Source: a virus
Taxonomy: Duplodnaviria; Caudoviricetes
IMG/VR virus record: IMGVR_UViG_3300031758_000088
Location: 1 to 58,443 of that record
Length of the DNA stretch: 58,443 bases
Reading direction: 5' to 3' (one strand)
Part shown: positions 2 through 6,538 of the stretch, piece by piece
Position numbering within the stretch: the first letter of the stretch is position 1
Layout: every line of letters starts with the position of its first letter
The notes under the pieces: generated by a model
The model's database searches: none
Told to the model about the DNA's origin: nothing
The model's input: only the letters and a program-made list of their open reading frames with translations
Made by a program: the position numbers and the translations under genes

Positions 2-3000
2 GACCGCCGGGTCTCCGTGAGCTGCCAGAGGAGCCAGAGAGGCAATCAGTCCCTTGACCTTGGTGTCGATGGTGGTGACGCCGTTGCGCAGGACTGGGAT
101 GCCGCCGTTGCGATCACCCATACCCATGGCAGAGGCTGCGATACCCGCTCCAAGGTCAGACATCAGGGCCGCAGATTCTGCGCTCTGGTCTGCGAGGAGG
201 GCTGCACCGCCCATCTGCTCGGCCCTCTTCTTGTCGTAGACCGACATCTGGTTGTAGCGGTTGAGGTAACGCTGACGGAAGCTGGCTGCGCTCTGAGGAG
301 AGATGGCAGAAACCATGCGCTCAACAAAGCCTTTCTCTTGTCGTTTAAACGTTGTCTCACCGATACGGTCGCTGATGTTCGTTGGGATGTTTGGCAGGCT
401 GTATTTGGCCTTGCTGCTCATCCGGGTGAACTTCTCCATCGCCTTCTGTTTGTTGGCATAGGAGAGAGGCTCCACCTCTGCGATCATCAGCACCGATGAC
501 ACTGCGTCATCGTATTGGGCAGTCAACGCCTTGACTGGAATGGACTTTGCATCTTCGGACCGCAAGTGAATGTAAACGGGAACTTCACGGTAGCCGTCCG
601 CGTGCAGCGCCAGCATGCGGTGACGGCCTTCGTGCCCAGTAATTTTCCAGTCTCCATTTTTTTCCGACACAGATAGAAATGGAACTTGGTCGTAAGCCTT
701 CAGCCTCTCGACATCAAGCGGCTCCTGCTCTCGGCGCAGTCTGTCATACGTGTCGGACGATGCCGTGGCGTTAACAAATTCAATCGGGTTAACAAGTGCA
801 AGGTAACCCTTGGTCTTGTTCTCTGCGTCACTCTGGGTGTACATGGATTCATTCCACAACTTCTCAAAGCGATCATCAGAGTAGCGCACCTTCTTCAAGC
901 TGTAGCGCATGTCCTTGGACTCGCGGCTGAATTCACCAATGTTGCCCGTGACGGACTTAACCTGCTCTGCTTTAAACACAGCAAGGTTCTTGTTGCCGTA
1001 CTCCTGCACGTAGAACGAATCAAAGCCAAACGACTTCAATGCGTCCTGAACAATCGGGTCTTCAATCGTTGACCACAAACCATTTGAGATGTCCTTTTTA
1101 AAGGTGCTGGCTTTGGAGCTGGACTTTTTAAGGCGGACAACGGGGTCAGAGCCGCTCAGCTTTTGGTCGGCAATAATTTTCTCCGCAACCATGGCGGCGT
1201 GTTCGCTGTTCTCGTAGTCGAATGGCGTCTCTGCGCGAACCCACAAGGGGTAGATTCGCATCTCGTCAGTGGACTTGCCCTCATCCTTTGCGCGGTCCTC
1301 TGCAAACTGCTCAGCAAAGTCAGGATCGGGGCTGACGAAGATTGGCTTGCTCTCAAGGAACGTGGTGAACTCGGATGCGGAGCCGTGGTACATGACTTGC
1401 GGACGACCCTCGTCCATGATCTGGCTGCCACCAAAGAAGAGTTTGAACTCCTTGGTCGATGGAGGGGCCTTGTCATATGCGGCATCTTCCGCCTCTTTTG
1501 CGGAGGGGAAGCTGGTGCGGAGACTGAACTTCCCAGTCTTCACGGAATGCTTGCCAATCAAAACTGCGTAGTCTTGTGATGCGGCTTGGTTTTTGACCAA
1601 GTAGCCATCAAAGCCAGCCCTCTTAACATTGCGCTCCCAATTGCTTGCGCGTTCTGCGGACGAGTCGCCCTTGGCGTTCTTGATGATTTCAAGAGGGTCT
1701 GTTTTGGTGTCGTACAGATTTTTCAACCTGATGACGTGAGGAGTGCCGCCAACACCAGCCTCGGGCCGGACTCCCTTGCCGTTGTCAACGTAGAAATAAA
1801 TTCGGCCACGAATGTCCGAGTTTTCTTTTTCGTTTAAACGCTCACTCTCCATTCCGCGCAGACCGGTGCCGTGGAACTCGGAGATGAGTGTTGGGCGTCT
1901 CTCTTTGCTGAAGTGGACGCCGACAGCGCTTACCGATCCTCGCGTTGGCGTTCCGTATTCTTCTGTTGGCTGGCCGAAGTCAACCGCATTACCGCGCTCT
2001 CGACCTCCGAGGCGAGCAGCTCCTCTGGCGTCAATCCATTTGTCTCTGAGCGAGATTGCTTCTTCGGAAATGGCCTGAAGACGGCGACTCCCTTGCCCCC
2101 GAACATCTGCCCCGGCTTCTCCTTGAATCTTTCCACTGTCGCCATATCGTGTTTCCTTTAAGTAGTCGCTTCTTGTGTCGGGCCAAACGAGTGAACTGTG
2201 GAATGTCTCCGGGTCGGAGACACGAATCTTTCCATCGTAAGGGAATGATTCGACAGCATCGATGATGGCCTCATGGTATTGAGCATCGGTAAGGGTGTCA
2301 ACGTTGTCGTTGTATGCAGAGAAGTTGCCGTACAGCAAGGCCCCATCACGCAACGTATCACCATCCGCCTGTGGGACGTTCTGCGCAATGTGTTGACGCA
2401 ACTCGCTTAATTGATCCGCAGTCATGCCCTCTGGGACAACAACCTTCACAAACCCAGCCTGATCGCCAGAGCTCTTGTTGTCCTCATCAAAAGCAACCAT
2501 TGCCTTTTGGTCGAGCACATAACCAAGCACCCGGGCAAGCTCGTCAAGCTCTTGCTCTGTGGCCTCGTCTGGGGCTTGAACAATGATGTTGGGGTTGACC
2601 TCGCCCTCGTAGGTGCCCGTAGAGAACTCGTACTTGTAACCCTTGAGTTCGAGCTCAGAGAACACAGAGGACACCACCCTGTTGGCAACGGCCTTGGTTG
2701 CGTTTAGACGCTCCGAAGGCGTCATCTGCCTCCACTTCTCTGCCGAGATGTGGTCAGGGTTCGGCGCTACCTCTGCGACTACTCCTTTGCGGAGGGAGAA
2801 CTTTTCTCCATCGAGTCCACGAGCTTCATCAGAAACTGCGATCTCCGTTCCGGGCTCATCCCTGCCGTCAGGTTTTTGATCGAAGACCACACTTGGTCTT
2901 GCTCGTCCAGAACCCTGATTGGCTTGGGCGATGATTGCTTCTTCGTATCCGATGTCATCTGCTTTTCTCCCGCTCAGTTTTTCATAAAGGCGTTTCTCAT

Positions 3001-6000
3001 AGTACCAAAGGGCGGCCTGAATGTCAGCCAGACTGAGGTTGATTCCTTCTCCACGCAGCAAAGCTTGAGCCTTGCGTGCTGCGTCGTACATGAACTTTCT
3101 GTCGGTGGCTGTAAACGGAGCCTCCTCCAGCATCTCAAACTCGTTCTTGTAGATGGTGTTTGCCATCTTCTCAAGGTTGTGTTCAAACAGCAACTGCTCG
3201 TAGGCATCACCAGCCTTCTCTTCGGCAGCTTTAAACCAATTTTCTTTTGCGGCCTTTTTGGATGGCTCCTTCGCCCCCGCCAAATGCTCAAGCTCGGTTG
3301 TCCAACCGTACTCCTCATACTTGTTTCGCAAAGGAATGGTGGCGGCAGTAACTTCATCCCGAGTGGCATCGGGCTGTTCCATCATGTCTCGGAACTTGTT
3401 GATGGAGGCTTCTGTGGCCTTGGGGATGAGCAAGCCGCGCATGCGATTGATGGAACGAGTCCACCACAAATCCATGGTCAGGTAGCCCTCTGAGCCGGAA
3501 AGGTTGGCGTAGAACGCGCCAAGCTTAGGTCCAAAGTAAACCGCTGCCGCTGGCACAACAGTGTTGGCGAGATAGCTGCCATCCGTCTCTTCGCCCATTT
3601 CTCGTAAACGGGCGTTCATTTCTTTGACGGTAATTTCTTTGAGCAACACCTTCTCAAAGTCTTGACCATACTTGCTCAACAAGTCTTGGATGACTTTCAA
3701 GTTGTTTTGGAGCGCGGTTGGACGACGATTGCCCATGGCAACCAATCGCTTGCCGTTACGAAGCTTGCCATACAGCTTGATGGCGTTGTCGATGTTCTTT
3801 GCAACTCGCTCCCCGTTGGATGTAACGGCAACCAAAGCCGAGAACACCGAACGGGCATGCTTGTTTGTTCCAAGCTCCGGGAATCGCTTGGCAAGACGCT
3901 TAACAGCATTGGGGTAGTTGTTGGAATACCAACCCAAACCAGTGCCAGTCTTGGTTGATGTCTGCAACTGATGCGCCACCTCATCGGCGATGGCTTCAGC
4001 AATCCGAGTTGACTCGTCTTGAGTCAGTTTGTTGCGGTCCATTGCACCAAGCTGGTCAAGTGTCTGCTGGTTAAGCGCCTTGGCAATGTCTCGCACGTTG
4101 TTAAAGCGACCGCGAACCGCATCAGTGTTTAAACCAAGCTCTTGCTGCGAAACAGCAGTCTGCTTCTCCATCAACTTGCGGGTTGACATGGGTATGCCTT
4201 CGCCAGCAAGGCTGTACTTTGGCTTTTCTTTTTTCTCGGTAGAGGGTTTGGCCTTCGGTTCCTTTTCCTCTTCGGCCTTCTCTTCTGGCTTGGCTTTTGG
4301 CTCTTCCTTCGGAGCAGTCTTCTCTTTTGGCTTGCGGGACTTCAACTCACCACGCTCAACGCGCTGGAACACATCATCCGCAGACTCAAAGCCAGCACCA
4401 CGCAGGGCTTGACCAAAGTTCATGAAGAAGTTCTTCAGCTTCTTGAACAGCGCAGCAATCATGCCGGGAGGCGGTGTGGCTCCACGGTCGTAAGCACCAA
4501 ACGCATCAGCGATGGCTTCTTCAATGATCTCTTCTTGAGTCAGGCCAATCTTCTTGTAGGCATCCAGACGGCTCATCGTCACAGGCTTGCCGTCCACCTC
4601 GATCTCGGAGGTCTGGTCTTGGAGGTACTCCTTGATCCACCTCTTGTTGGCTTGCTCAGTCAGGGCCTTCCATTGCTGCGGGGTGAAGAACTCCAAGTCC
4701 TTCAGCGCATGCAGGGACTCATGGCGCATGGTTTGGATGGGGTTGGCCTCATCCAGAGAGACCTGAATCAGCTTGTCGAGGTAAGCACCACCCGCGTTGT
4801 TCTTGATCTGCTCAACAACGTTTACACCCACATCGCCAAGGTTGAACTTGGCCAGCATAGGCTTGAGCTTTGACTCAAGCTCCTGCGTGCGGGCAGCAAC
4901 TTCAGCTTGTTTAAACACCTGAGGATCGCGCTCGCGCAGCGTGGCTTCGGCCTGCTCCAGAGTTGGGAATACCCCAATTGGCTCAGCACCACGGTTAACG
5001 GTGAACTCGTTCTGCACGTCAGTGCGGGAACCGATGGGGGTAAAGCTCAAGGGGGCGGAGTAGCTGGCAATCTTGTCGTTGATGTCCTGAATCTTTAAGG
5101 CGGCCTCCTCCTCCTTTTGGGAGAGAAGGGCCTTGGCTTGGACGTACTCATCGGTGTCAGTCTGGCCCGTGGCCTCCATGACCTCAAGCTTACGCTGCTC
5201 ATCCTGAATGGACTTGCTGATCTTGTCAGACTCAGCCAAGAGACGGGCTTGCTCCTCCTGACGAATCTCGGTCAGGGACTGAATCTTCCTCTCCACCTCT
5301 TCTTGGGAGGCAACGGAGGTCAGAGGCTTGTCTGAACCTTCGGCAAAGATGCCAAACGACTCAGGTACGTCTCGGCGGGAGATTTCTCTGCGGGTGGCTG
5401 TGTAGCCACCGGGGAACTCTGTTGGGGGCTCTACGGGAGCTTTCTCTGGGGCTTCAGCAGAAGGCGCGACAGGCTCGGCTTGACCGAAGCCTTTGCGGAA
5501 CTCTTCCTTCTCCTTCTCAAAGGCATCCACAGCCTCAGGAGGCTTGGCCTCAGGACGCACCATCGCGGCAATGGGGGCAGCGCCCAGAGCGCCTGTGAGC
5601 GCTTCTTGGGTCGCAGCACCTGCCACGCCTTTAAACGTGTCTACGTCGTACCCCGCACGCTGCAATGCAACGTTCTCAGCGACCTTCTCTTGACCGCCTT
5701 GAGCAGCCTCTGGGACAGATTCCTTGAGAACTGATTCGCCAACCCTGCGAGCCATGCCGGGGGCTGCTCCTGCTCGGCCAGCCTTGGAGAACAACTCTTC
5801 AACACCCTTGGAGCCAGCAACATAACCAAGACCGGCACCGAGGGCGATCTGGTCAAAGTTTCCACCGAAGTACGACTGGGCTGCGTCAGCCTTTTGCTTG
5901 GCAACCTCTGGGTCTACGCCAGCCTCAATCTCGGCCTTCAGCACGCCGTCATAGATGGAGCCTTTGACAGCGCCAGCACCTTGGGCGGTACCAATAACCT

Positions 6001-6538
6001 TGGGGGCTTGTTGAGCAACGGACCGGATGGCAGCTTGAGAGCCAGCGGTTAAACGCATGGCAGCAGCCGCAGGGGCTGCAAACAAGGTGGGCAGGTACGG
6101 AACAAACGAGCCAATGGCCTGCGCGGCAGACTGGAGAGGAGCTTCAGCAACGTTTAAAGCACCAGCCTTGATCTCTTCCCATGTGCTGCCAGACTCTTCG
6201 GCAGCCTTCATCCGGGCGGCCTGACGCTGCATCTCAGCTTGACGCTCTGGGGTCATGCTCTGCTGAAGACTCTCCACGCCCTTGCCAAGCTTGGAGGAGA
6301 TGAAGTTGTCAGCGCCAGCCACATCGGTGAGCGCCTTGGCGCTTCCCGCAGCACCAACACCAAAGGACTTGGCTATGTCTCCAAGGGAGAACCCAGCGTC
6401 TTTGGCTGGGGCTGTTGGCATGACGTCCGACTCGATTGCAGAGCCGCCGTATTTCCGGGCCAGATCATCAAATTTTGATGCGCCGGGTTGAACTTGGCTT
6501 CCGCCGTATTTTTTTGCCAGCTCATCAAGGTTCATCAT
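2..6538 (-). CDS. Large polyvalent virion/ejection protein (>2,179 aa, C-terminus beyond window): zincin, HhH-glycosylase-like, unknown domain, two ADP-ribosyltransferase-like domains, ParB/Srx-like domain, LPD38-like region
   Basis: Not in ORF track. ATG at 6538 overlaps the upstream stop (ATGA); the N-terminus and the 4.9 kb-to-base-2 stretch translate by hand in one frame, and I saw no stop. Motifs: HESLH..EEAIADAF (~4720-4500); GWY..GPKLGAFYANL..TMDLWWTR..QAALWYYEKRLY (~3940-2985); VHFS..YFYV..GFDGY (~1920-1600); MYHGS..F..F..FVS..GFDS..VFKAEQVKS..N.G.F (~1393-920); GHEGRHR (617-637). Confidence 0.88.
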   Translation of the reverse strand, partial: MMNLDELAKKYGGSQVQPGASKFDDLARKYGGSAIESDVMPTAPAKDAGFSLGDIAKSFGVGAAGSAKALTDVAGADNFISSKLGKGVESLQQSMTPERQAEMQRQAARMKAAEESGSTWEEIKAGALNVAEAPLQSAAQAIGSFVPYLPTLFAAPAAAAMRLTAGSQAAIRSVAQQAPKVIGTAQGAGAVKGSIYDGVLKAEIEAGVDPEVAKQKADAAQSYFGGNFDQIALGAGLGYVAGSKGVEELFSKAGRAGAAPGMARRVGESVLKESVPEAAQGGQEKVAENVALQRAGYDVDTFKGVAGAATQEALTGALGAAPIAAMVRPEAKPPEAVDAFEKEKEEFRKGFGQAEPVAPSAEAPEKAPVEPPTEFPGGYTATRREISRRDVPESFGIFAEGSDKPLTSVASQEEVERKIQSLTEIRQEEQARLLAESDKISKSIQDEQRKLEVMEATGQTDTDEYVQAKALLSQKEEEAALKIQDINDKIASYSAPLSFTPIGSRTDVQNEFTVNRGAEPIGVFPTLEQAEATLRERDPQVFKQAEVAARTQELESKLKPMLAKFNLGDVGVNVVEQIKNNAGGAYLDKLIQVSLDEANPIQTMRHESLHALKDLEFFTPQQWKALTEQANKRWIKEYLQDQTSEIEVDGKPVTMSRLDAYKKIGLTQEEIIEEAIADAFGAYDRGATPPPGMIAALFKKLKNFFMNFGQALRGAGFESADDVFQRVERGELKSRKPKEKTAPKEEPKAKPEEKAEEEKEPKAKPSTEKKEKPKYSLAGEGIPMSTRKLMEKQTAVSQQELGLNTDAVRGRFNNVRDIAKALNQQTLDQLGAMDRNKLTQDESTRIAEAIADEVAHQLQTSTKTGTGLGWYSNNYPNAVKRLAKRFPELGTNKHARSVFSALVAVTSNGERVAKNIDNAIKLYGKLRNGKRLVAMGNRRPTALQNNLKVIQDLLSKYGQDFEKVLLKEITVKEMNARLREMGEETDGSYLANTVVPAAAVYFGPKLGAFYANLSGSEGYLTMDLWWTRSINRMRGLLIPKATEASINKFRDMMEQPDATRDEVTAATIPLRNKYEEYGWTTELEHLAGAKEPSKKAAKENWFKAAEEKAGDAYEQLLFEHNLEKMANTIYKNEFEMLEEAPFTATDRKFMYDAARKAQALLRGEGINLSLADIQAALWYYEKRLYEKLSGRKADDIGYEEAIIAQANQGSGRARPSVVFDQKPDGRDEPGTEIAVSDEARGLDGEKFSLRKGVVAEVAPNPDHISAEKWRQMTPSERLNATKAVANRVVSSVFSELELKGYKYEFSTGTYEGEVNPNIIVQAPDEATEQELDELARVLGYVLDQKAMVAFDEDNKSSGDQAGFVKVVVPEGMTADQLSELRQHIAQNVPQADGDTLRDGALLYGNFSAYNDNVDTLTDAQYHEAIIDAVESFPYDGKIRVSDPETFHSSLVWPDTRSDYLKETRYGDSGKIQGEAGADVRGQGSRRLQAISEEAISLRDKWIDARGAARLGGRERGNAVDFGQPTEEYGTPTRGSVSAVGVHFSKERRPTLISEFHGTGLRGMESERLNEKENSDIRGRIYFYVDNGKGVRPEAGVGGTPHVIRLKNLYDTKTDPLEIIKNAKGDSSAERASNWERNVKRAGFDGYLVKNQAASQDYAVLIGKHSVKTGKFSLRTSFPSAKEAEDAAYDKAPPSTKEFKLFFGGSQIMDEGRPQVMYHGSASEFTTFLESKPIFVSPDPDFAEQFAEDRAKDEGKSTDEMRIYPLWVRAETPFDYENSEHAAMVAEKIIADQKLSGSDPVVRLKKSSSKASTFKKDISNGLWSTIEDPIVQDALKSFGFDSFYVQEYGNKNLAVFKAEQVKSVTGNIGEFSRESKDMRYSLKKVRYSDDRFEKLWNESMYTQSDAENKTKGYLALVNPIEFVNATASSDTYDRLRREQEPLDVERLKAYDQVPFLSVSEKNGDWKITGHEGRHRMLALHADGYREVPVYIHLRSEDAKSIPVKALTAQYDDAVSSVLMIAEVEPLSYANKQKAMEKFTRMSSKAKYSLPNIPTNISDRIGETTFKRQEKGFVERMVSAISPQSAASFRQRYLNRYNQMSVYDKKRAEQMGGAALLADQSAESAALMSDLGAGIAASAMGMGDRNGGIPVLRNGVTTIDTKVKGLIASLAPLAAHGDPAV
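1930..2145 (-). CDS. Putative overprinted small protein (71 aa) nested in +1 frame of polyvalent gene
   Basis: AAGGA SD 8 nt before ATG; G/C-ending codons typical of the genome, while the host frame becomes an R/G-rich linker with atypical codons. Confidence 0.5.
   Translation of the reverse strand: MATVERFKEKPGQMFGGKGVAVFRPFPKKQSRSETNGLTPEELLASEVESAVMRLTSASQQKNTERQREDR
2779..2958 (-). CDS. Putative overprinted small protein (59 aa, MTSDTKKQSSPKPIRVLDEQDQVWSSIKNL...) nested in +1 frame of polyvalent gene
   Basis: GGGAGA SD 7 nt before ATG; typical codon usage; lies in the linker after the HhH-like domain. Confidence 0.5.
   Translation of the reverse strand: MTSDTKKQSSPKPIRVLDEQDQVWSSIKNLTAGMSPERRSQFLMKLVDSMEKSSPSAKE

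Follow-up and report, generated by a model that had tools for sequence, protein, structure and literature searches.

Evidence for a conserved small gene overprinted on an inter-module spacer of a phage polyvalent protein

Can the spacer between two effector domains of a giant phage protein also be the out-of-frame reading of another gene? The question is raised by a DNA of 58,443 bases, the IMG/VR virus record IMGVR_UViG_3300031758_000088, which was analysed whole and is referred to here as the window. The record is that of a tailed phage, whose terminase, portal, virion-protein and tail-fibre genes all lie on the minus strand; at the end of this block, downstream of these genes and on the same strand, stands a very long gene for a polyvalent virion protein (the host gene). 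A preliminary description, made from the letters of the window alone, had pointed to a 59-codon open reading frame (ORF) in the +1 frame of the host gene, directly behind a glycosylase-like domain, and had suggested that it encodes an inhibitor of that domain. Our analysis favours, with a probability of about 0.85, a genuine gene that lies within a phage polyvalent protein gene and is read in its +1 frame. To judge by related sequences, the small ORF itself is very probably a genuine and conserved protein-coding gene.

The ORF, its frame and its extent were found exactly as first described, the strand being the minus one, and the GGGAGA proposed as its Shine-Dalgarno (SD) sequence is present (Table 1). 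The ATG, at host codon 1194, follows the last confidently predicted helix of the preceding module (model residues 391-410, host residues 1170-1189) by four to five codons, and the stop falls four codons beyond a KFSL motif of the host protein, so both ends agree with the original account. Its statement that the codons are typical of the genome is roughly right: third codon positions have a GC content of 0.70 in the ORF, compared with 0.62 across the host gene and 0.42 where the host frame overlaps it. The accompanying caveat that this frame is often open proved well founded. The +1 frame of the host gene holds only 58 stops in 2178 codons and seven ORFs of at least 59 amino acids (aa) beginning with ATG, the reported one being the shortest. 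In 1000 shuffles of synonymous codons that kept the host protein and its codon usage, 5.07 +/- 1.61 such ORFs were obtained, and the stretch of the ORF was free of stops in 67%. By these counts the ORF is unremarkable within the window alone; the above-chance signal comes solely from related sequences.

Viral contigs were scanned twice and metagenome contigs once; together with the window this gave 49 loci covering the site. The ATG is present at the aligned codon in 44 of them, and all 44 are open through codon 51. These 44 loci comprise 37 distinct sequences and are related, so the counts are not numbers of independent events. An SD-like tetramer lies 5-16 nucleotides (nt) upstream in 42 of the 44 loci keeping the ATG, in strict form (GGAG, GAGG or AGGA) in 37. 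The embedded ORFs are 51-127 aa long, and host-module identity in these loci is as low as 47%. Over 55 residues the +1 peptides can be aligned with no gap, and no insertion or deletion was seen across the 55 alternative-frame codons in 21 sequences. Conservation of start, SD sequence and open frame had been named beforehand as one of the points on which the proposed gene would stand or fall, and it held.

Selection in the two frames was examined by Nei-Gojobori counts of the proportions of nonsynonymous (pN) and synonymous (pS) differences on 17 distinct sequences, region by region. Over the 100 host codons upstream of the ORF, the host frame had a pS of 0.69 and a pN/pS of 0.18, and the +1 frame a pN/pS of 1.18. 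Over ORF codons 1-26 the host pS was 0.25. Over codons 27-53, which correspond to the spacer, the host pN/pS was 1.62, and the +1 frame had a pS of 0.63 and a pN/pS of 0.54. As a control, 27-codon windows were slid over the module, 107 of them lying upstream of the ORF. The +1 pN/pS was 0.40-0.62 inside the ORF versus 0.81-2.81 in all 107 control windows, the host pS 0.16-0.25 versus 0.57-0.82, and the host pN/pS up to 2.0 versus 0.02-0.52. The most variable codon position moves from host position 3 upstream (0.46) to host position 1, which is position 3 of the alternative frame, in the spacer (0.53). Synonymous-codon identity is 0.40-0.57 at host residues 781-1188, 0.78-0.87 at residues 1189-1240 and about 0.5 from residue 1242; a scan of the whole gene in six sequences showed only two sustained peaks, the ORF and residues 1455-1533. 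The frame-specific comparison that the preliminary description had recommended thus found purifying selection in the +1 frame and suppressed synonymous change in the host frame. The comparison of related phages shows that the start codon, the ribosome-binding site, the frame and the peptide sequence are kept by selection.

What the host frame contributes to the overlap was examined in the model of AlphaFold2 (AF2). Host residues 1193-1253 have a predicted local distance difference test score (pLDDT) below 50, so the small gene lies entirely on a predicted disordered tail and spacer. The first half of this tail and spacer is conserved (ADDIGYEEAIIAQ...RPSVVF), the second variable and of low complexity. 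For the host protein, the stretch across the small gene would thus be a predicted disordered spacer in which nearly any residue is accepted.

The product of the ORF, P0002, was modelled with a 17-row alignment (pLDDT 74.3). A disordered basic N-terminus (residues 1-21) is followed by helices at residues 22-30 and 36-52 with pLDDT 84-92, and the product would be a small helical protein with a basic tail. It contains no Cys and no hydrophobic segment or N-terminus, and with 10 Lys and Arg against 8 Asp and Glu it is not acidic. Searches with the small protein and its relatives in Pfam, PHROGs, NCBIfam and PADLOC gave no match, one of the ESM Atlas with the relative P0011 no usable match, and Foldseek and VIA runs on the 59-aa AF2 model nothing above Z 3.7.

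The domain upstream of the ORF, which had been called HhH-like or glycosylase-like, is predicted to be all-alpha. In an exhaustive VIA search with its model, 22 of the top 23 rows were DNA glycosylases of the HhH-GPD fold or their relatives, among them endonuclease III, MutY, AlkA, OGG, a queuine-salvage enzyme and a phage thymidine-hypermodification enzyme (Z 7.7-5.4, root-mean-square deviation 3.5-5.2, 163-215 residues aligned), Z values that are middling for helical models. The module gave no match in Pfam, among the sequences of the PDB or in Foldseek at E<=0.001. Its invariant stretch GPKLGAFYANLSGSEGYLTMDLWWTR resembles, and is a candidate for, the hairpin followed by a catalytic Asp of HhH-GPD glycosylases. 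The earlier designation is backed at the level of the predicted fold only, with a middling Z, and finds no counterpart in the Pfam and PDB sequence searches; the glycosylase-like fold is a lead, not family membership. The module also occurs on its own, as the 438-aa protein P0072 (36% identity, 92% coverage), which ends in an acidic tail some 60 residues beyond a WYYEK motif.

Relatives of the small protein also occur outside polyvalent genes, as separate genes of integrative mobile islands. A profile (A1) built from 17 embedded sequences only was searched against 1.84 billion representatives and matched 41 proteins at E<=1e-3. Of these, 33 are small proteins of 44-168 aa (E 6e-22 to 5e-4) that share a core with varied N-termini; over the series P0003-P0042 the core reads R-V-x-D-x-x-D-P-x-W-S-S...L-T-x-G-M-x-P-x-E-R. 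The eight large matches (P0006, P0007, P0021, P0031, P0033, P0036, P0041 and P0043) were repeat proteins with many weak stretches and were rejected on inspection, so no fused form was found among the profile matches. Members that carry a name are all annotated as hypothetical proteins, one of them in Roseateles violae. The longer members P0010, P0011, P0014 and P0015 add the C-terminal modules F-D-L-x-N-L-P-F-D-P and Y-D-P-I-E...L-T-R-E-K-A-L-E-M-A-K-x-F-G-F; for P0010 no relative was found in viral contigs. The second of these modules extends the embedded ORF to 88-89 aa in nine loci (L013-L017, L046, L051-L053), and in some phages these longer ORFs run on into the next host module.

Seventeen metagenome loci of the family were sorted by the state of the other reading frames. 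In a first group (L072-L078) the small gene stands without a long ORF in the other frames of the same strand (at most 32 codons). One member (L078) is interrupted after 37 codons, and the C-terminus of another (L077) differs; in the five copies that are intact and of full length (L072-L076), pN/pS is 0.23 in the frame of the gene and 1.09 and 1.48 in the other two. A second group (L079, L082 and L083) has an intact 88-aa gene with a pN/pS of 0.26, and the former host frame, with a pN/pS of 1.08, is cut by 1-4 stops and retains recognisable polyvalent remnants (RP.VVF, RSYRGRNE). These three loci amount to a natural knock-out of the host frame in which the small gene has survived. A comparable partial stretch of host frame, 112 codons long, is present in L081. 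In the last group (L080 and L084-L088) the gene is embedded in open frames of at least 1531 codons, with the module directly upstream in 6 of 6. The stand-alone homologues start at the equivalent methionine and have an SD sequence of their own.

These results bear on the suggestion of the preliminary description that a toxin-immunity pair had been absorbed in frame, leaving the cognate inhibitor inside the effector gene. One part of it fits: the ORF is very probably a real gene, kept by purifying selection at the end of the glycosylase-like module, and relatives existing as separate genes link the fused and unfused layouts. The proposed direction of absorption does not fit L079, L082 and L083, which appear to have been exported from a polyvalent gene because they carry decayed remnants of the polyvalent frame. 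The features of the window and of the islands are collected in Table 1.

Table 1. Positions of the small gene, its host gene and neighbouring features in the window, and neighbours of stand-alone relatives in islands.
Feature	Position	Strand	Remarks
Overlapping small gene	2779..2958	minus	ATG at 2958, 59 codons, TAG 2781..2779; +1 to host frame 6538..2
GGGAGA, SD-like	2966..2971	minus	7 nt before ATG; the same bases encode host residues S-G-R-K
Host gene, polyvalent virion protein	2..6538	minus	>2179 codons; runs off the end of the record
Upstream module	2972..4207	minus	Host residues 778-1189; predicted all-alpha (AF2, pLDDT 65.4), HhH-GPD-glycosylase-like fold
Host-frame tail and spacer overprinted by the small gene	2804..2962	minus	Host residues 1193-1245; pLDDT 23-45
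KFSL junction motif	2792..2803	minus	Host residues 1246-1249; one of five K/R-[FYL]-S-L
K/R-[FYL]-S-L motifs, module borders (n=5)	4208-4219, 2792-2803, 1520-1531, 896-907, 395-406	minus	Host residues 774, 1246, 1670, 1878, 2045
Second +1-frame gene candidate, P0066	1930-2145	minus	71 aa; host residues 1465-1535; AAGGA 8 nt before ATG
~115-aa neighbour gene, L072	2673-3023	minus	
~115-aa neighbour gene, L073	3598-3942	minus	
~115-aa neighbour gene, L079	4564-4641		Weak match
Island neighbours, L072			Integrase, Mob_Pre relaxase, type I R and S subunits
Island neighbour, L073			AlpA
Island neighbour, L079			HNH restriction-like enzyme
Neighbours, L089 (Roseateles violae)			Type I R subunit; P4-type integrase next to mnmE
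Neighbour, L092			Large serine recombinase

The host gene is a polyvalent protein gene in the sense of the main text of Iyer et al. 2017 (PMC5512222). Many effector domains are found in one polypeptide: ART-PolyVal (Pfam) matches residues 1709-1870 of the host protein (E 1.5e-15), and at least five modules are delimited by K/R-[FYL]-S-L motifs, which may be processing sites. In 13 of 20 related loci the match to the query ends at residues 461-517, near the KFSL junction, and other domains lie beyond it; at the second of these motifs, related loci exchange the modules that follow. Two further motifs of the polyvalent protein were spotted by eye, HESLH (HExxH-like, about residues 612-620) and GHEGRHR (ParB-like, about residues 1985-1995), neither of which is matched by a Pfam model. 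A blastn search of the region against GenBank phages gave no match.

The other sustained peak of synonymous-codon identity coincides with a second candidate for a +1-frame gene in the same host gene, P0066. Its ATG is kept in 6 of 6 sequences, all six open for 66-72 aa, and in its region the host pS is 0.41 (about 0.70 elsewhere), the +1 pN/pS 0.66 and the synonymous identity up to 0.94. Relatives of P0066 are embedded in L087 and L088, and one stands alone on the opposite strand of L079, a locus in which both small genes of the window have relatives although neither module is present. The N-terminal K-P-G-x-x-F-G-G-K-G motif of P0066 also heads P0024, a member of the family of the first small gene.

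Four longer +1 ORFs of the host gene were considered and set aside as chance: those of 95 and 131 aa upstream of residue 1185, where the windows have a +1 pN/pS of at least 0.81, and those of 68 and 109 aa, which are broken in homologues and have a +1 pN/pS of about 1.2. A smaller rise in synonymous-codon identity inside the module (3125-3184, minus strand, host residues 1119-1138; 0.67-0.71 versus a baseline of 0.40-0.57) comes without constraint in the +1 frame (pN/pS at least 0.81).

What might the small protein do? It would be made by internal initiation at its own SD sequence and ATG on the late messenger RNA, and it may bind the glycosylase-like module whose end its gene overlaps, as a neutraliser or an escort; islands may retain orphan copies for the same binding activity. 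This partnership is a tentative proposal, in which the binding, the inhibition and the toxicity of the module are all putative. It fits the position of the gene, the island contexts beside restriction genes and the retention in L079 of both small genes without their modules, and the small gene accompanies the glycosylase-like module whatever comes downstream. A complex prediction of the small protein with the upstream module returned a score of 0.01 and a mark of 0.32, and counts neither way on binding.

Several points weigh against this account of the gene and its product. The ATG is missing at the aligned codon in 5 of the 49 loci, of which L057 and L058 have ACG and L063-L065, with 34-38% host identity, have other codons. 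All five keep the +1 frame open, and nine codons farther upstream each has an in-frame ATG that leads into a peptide containing a similar ...M-S-P-K-E... helix; the start of the small gene is not fixed in position. None of 12 stand-alone loci matches the glycosylase-like module, so the small protein can work without the module in cis. The linkage between gene and module is forced by their physical overlap and hence says little about function, and no known family, fold or motif assigns one in the databases and fold searches named above.

The gene may instead be real and its product independent of the module, either a small dimeric DNA-binding regulator or antitoxin-like protein (ribbon-helix-helix-like, RHH-like) or an anti-defence or takeover factor used by phages and islands alike, a possibility to which we give the same low probability as to the partnership, leaving the remainder to other functions. 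It would account for the stand-alone copies lying in the regulatory or maintenance part of islands, near genes for integrase, AlpA and Mob_Pre, and for the divergent orientation, in L072, L073, L076 and L078, of a conserved gene of about 115 aa (motif G-P-R-T-x-E-G-K-Q-R-I-A-Q-A-Q) that faces the small gene. This neighbour has no match in Pfam, NCBIfam or PADLOC, and the window holds no relative of it. With its basic N-terminal tail the small protein might well bind nucleic acids, and its pattern (R-V-x-D, helix, G-M-S/T-P, helix) recalls RHH proteins, which consist of a short strand, a helix, a G-x-S/T turn and a helix. However, no RHH or other Pfam model matches any of the 33 family members at E up to 10, the fold search returned RHH chains only at Z 2.8-2.9, level with unrelated helical hairpins, and it is not apparent why a regulator should be bound to a single effector module.

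If ribosomes entered the +1 segment by programmed +1 frameshifting, the result would be a shortened module with an alternative helical C-terminus and no separate gene. The overlap is indeed on the same strand and in the +1 frame, and in 20 of 43 sequences this frame stays free of stops over the 23-39 codons that precede the ATG. In the other 23, however, a +1-frame stop lies 2-5 codons before the ATG, which argues against entry into this frame from upstream. Moreover, the ATG and the SD sequence are conserved and the stand-alone homologues begin at the equivalent methionine. We consider frameshifting very unlikely.

Very unlikely, too, is a conserved nucleic-acid element that encodes no protein, such as a structured RNA, an internal promoter or a junction at which modules are shuffled by recombination. 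The region is a border at which modules are exchanged, and a sigma-70-like match (CTGACA, 17 nt, TACTAT, with TG) lies at 3027..2999 on the minus strand, about 40 nt upstream of the ATG of the small gene, one of 2 such matches found versus 0.3 expected. It falls within the invariant host motif LADIQAALWYYEK, and the synonymous sites under it vary normally. The RNA around the start of the ORF is less folded than its shuffles (z +1.82), of which 195 of 200 form structures equally stable or more so. Variation in the region shows the codon periodicity of the +1 frame with conservative amino-acid changes, the +1 pS of the spacer is high enough that the DNA itself is not frozen, and the stand-alone copies have low pN/pS values in the frame of the gene. 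RNA-library contigs from two studies comprised only relatives of 2856/2879..3034 followed by unlike sequence; being contigs, they are no guide to transcription start, strand or translation.

A chance ORF, its openness and similarity arising from host-protein conservation and codon bias, has a negligible probability: the ORF is ordinary within the window alone and the +1 ORFs of 68 and 109 aa in the same gene are chance, but conservation of the host protein is lowest precisely in the part in which the +1 peptide is conserved best, every one of the 107 control windows differs from those of the ORF, and stand-alone homologues exist.

How does a genuine embedded gene compare with known systems? 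Polymorphic toxin systems contain toxin-immunity pairs and orphan immunity genes, and Ugi and p56 are small phage inhibitors of DNA glycosylases. Here too a small gene lies at the end of an effector module and has orphan copies in other mobile loci, and its product, a putative inhibitor, has the size of the known glycosylase inhibitors. It differs from toxin-immunity pairs in overlapping the effector gene instead of following it, and from DNA-mimic glycosylase inhibitors in that P0002 is not acidic.

Rz1, a spanin component, is a lipoprotein of the outer membrane that carries a signal sequence and a lipobox Cys, and embedded and separate layouts of Rz and Rz1 both exist. In phage lambda the Rz/Rz1 spanin genes include an embedded gene in the +1 frame (PMC5295617). 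The present case resembles them in having a small gene wholly within a larger phage gene on the same strand, in the +1 frame, with its own start, and selected together with the host gene. Unlike Rz1, P0002 has neither the Cys nor the hydrophobic N-terminus, and thus neither the signal sequence nor the lipobox, of an outer-membrane spanin; unlike in Rz/Rz1, what the host frame encodes over the small gene is no functional partner domain but a spacer, predicted to be disordered, within a multi-effector virion protein.

A second precedent is the ShiLan element, a hidden out-of-frame HNH gene inside phage DNA methylase genes (PMC11855218). Both cases have an out-of-frame gene in a host gene that is read straight through without stops and translated as an insert or linker. 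The ShiLan element behaves as a mobile insertion and encodes a homing endonuclease; in contrast, the present gene would encode a helical protein of 55-127 aa without a nuclease motif and is always at the end of one module family. With the class of polyvalent proteins (PMC5512222), the host shares its giant multi-domain architecture, ART-PolyVal and a place in the late or virion block, and processing into units has been proposed in that source for the class. Its main text contains no occurrence of "overlapping", "linker", "frameshift", "small protein" or "glycosylase", and describes neither embedded genes nor a glycosylase-like module. A literature search that took in the main text of PMC5512222 found no description of small genes overprinted in polyvalent-protein spacers. 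Embedded +1 genes of phages are already known; what sets this case apart is the polyvalent-effector host, the overprinting of an inter-module spacer and an unannotated family shared with bacterial islands.

Gene callers skip genes inside genes, and a small-protein family conserved in dozens of phages, and on bacterial islands too, has in this way stayed invisible in phage annotation. As this case shows, what reads as a low-complexity spacer in a polyvalent protein can be a constrained gene translated out of frame, which alters how spacers and module shuffling are to be read, and a concrete pair is now identified, a glycosylase-like injected module and a 59-aa protein. More generally, the inter-module spacers of polyvalent effectors may be overprinted with genes whose small products bind or neutralise the individual modules, and the window would hold at least two of them. 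Bacterial defence islands would then capture such genes as orphan "immunity" against injected effectors, in this instance a DNA-glycosylase-like module. We rate this wider scheme as rather unlikely. If true, overprinted neutralisers captured by islands would be a hidden layer in the arms race between phages and their hosts, and what pass for "linkers" in polyvalent proteins would be real genes read in the wrong frame.

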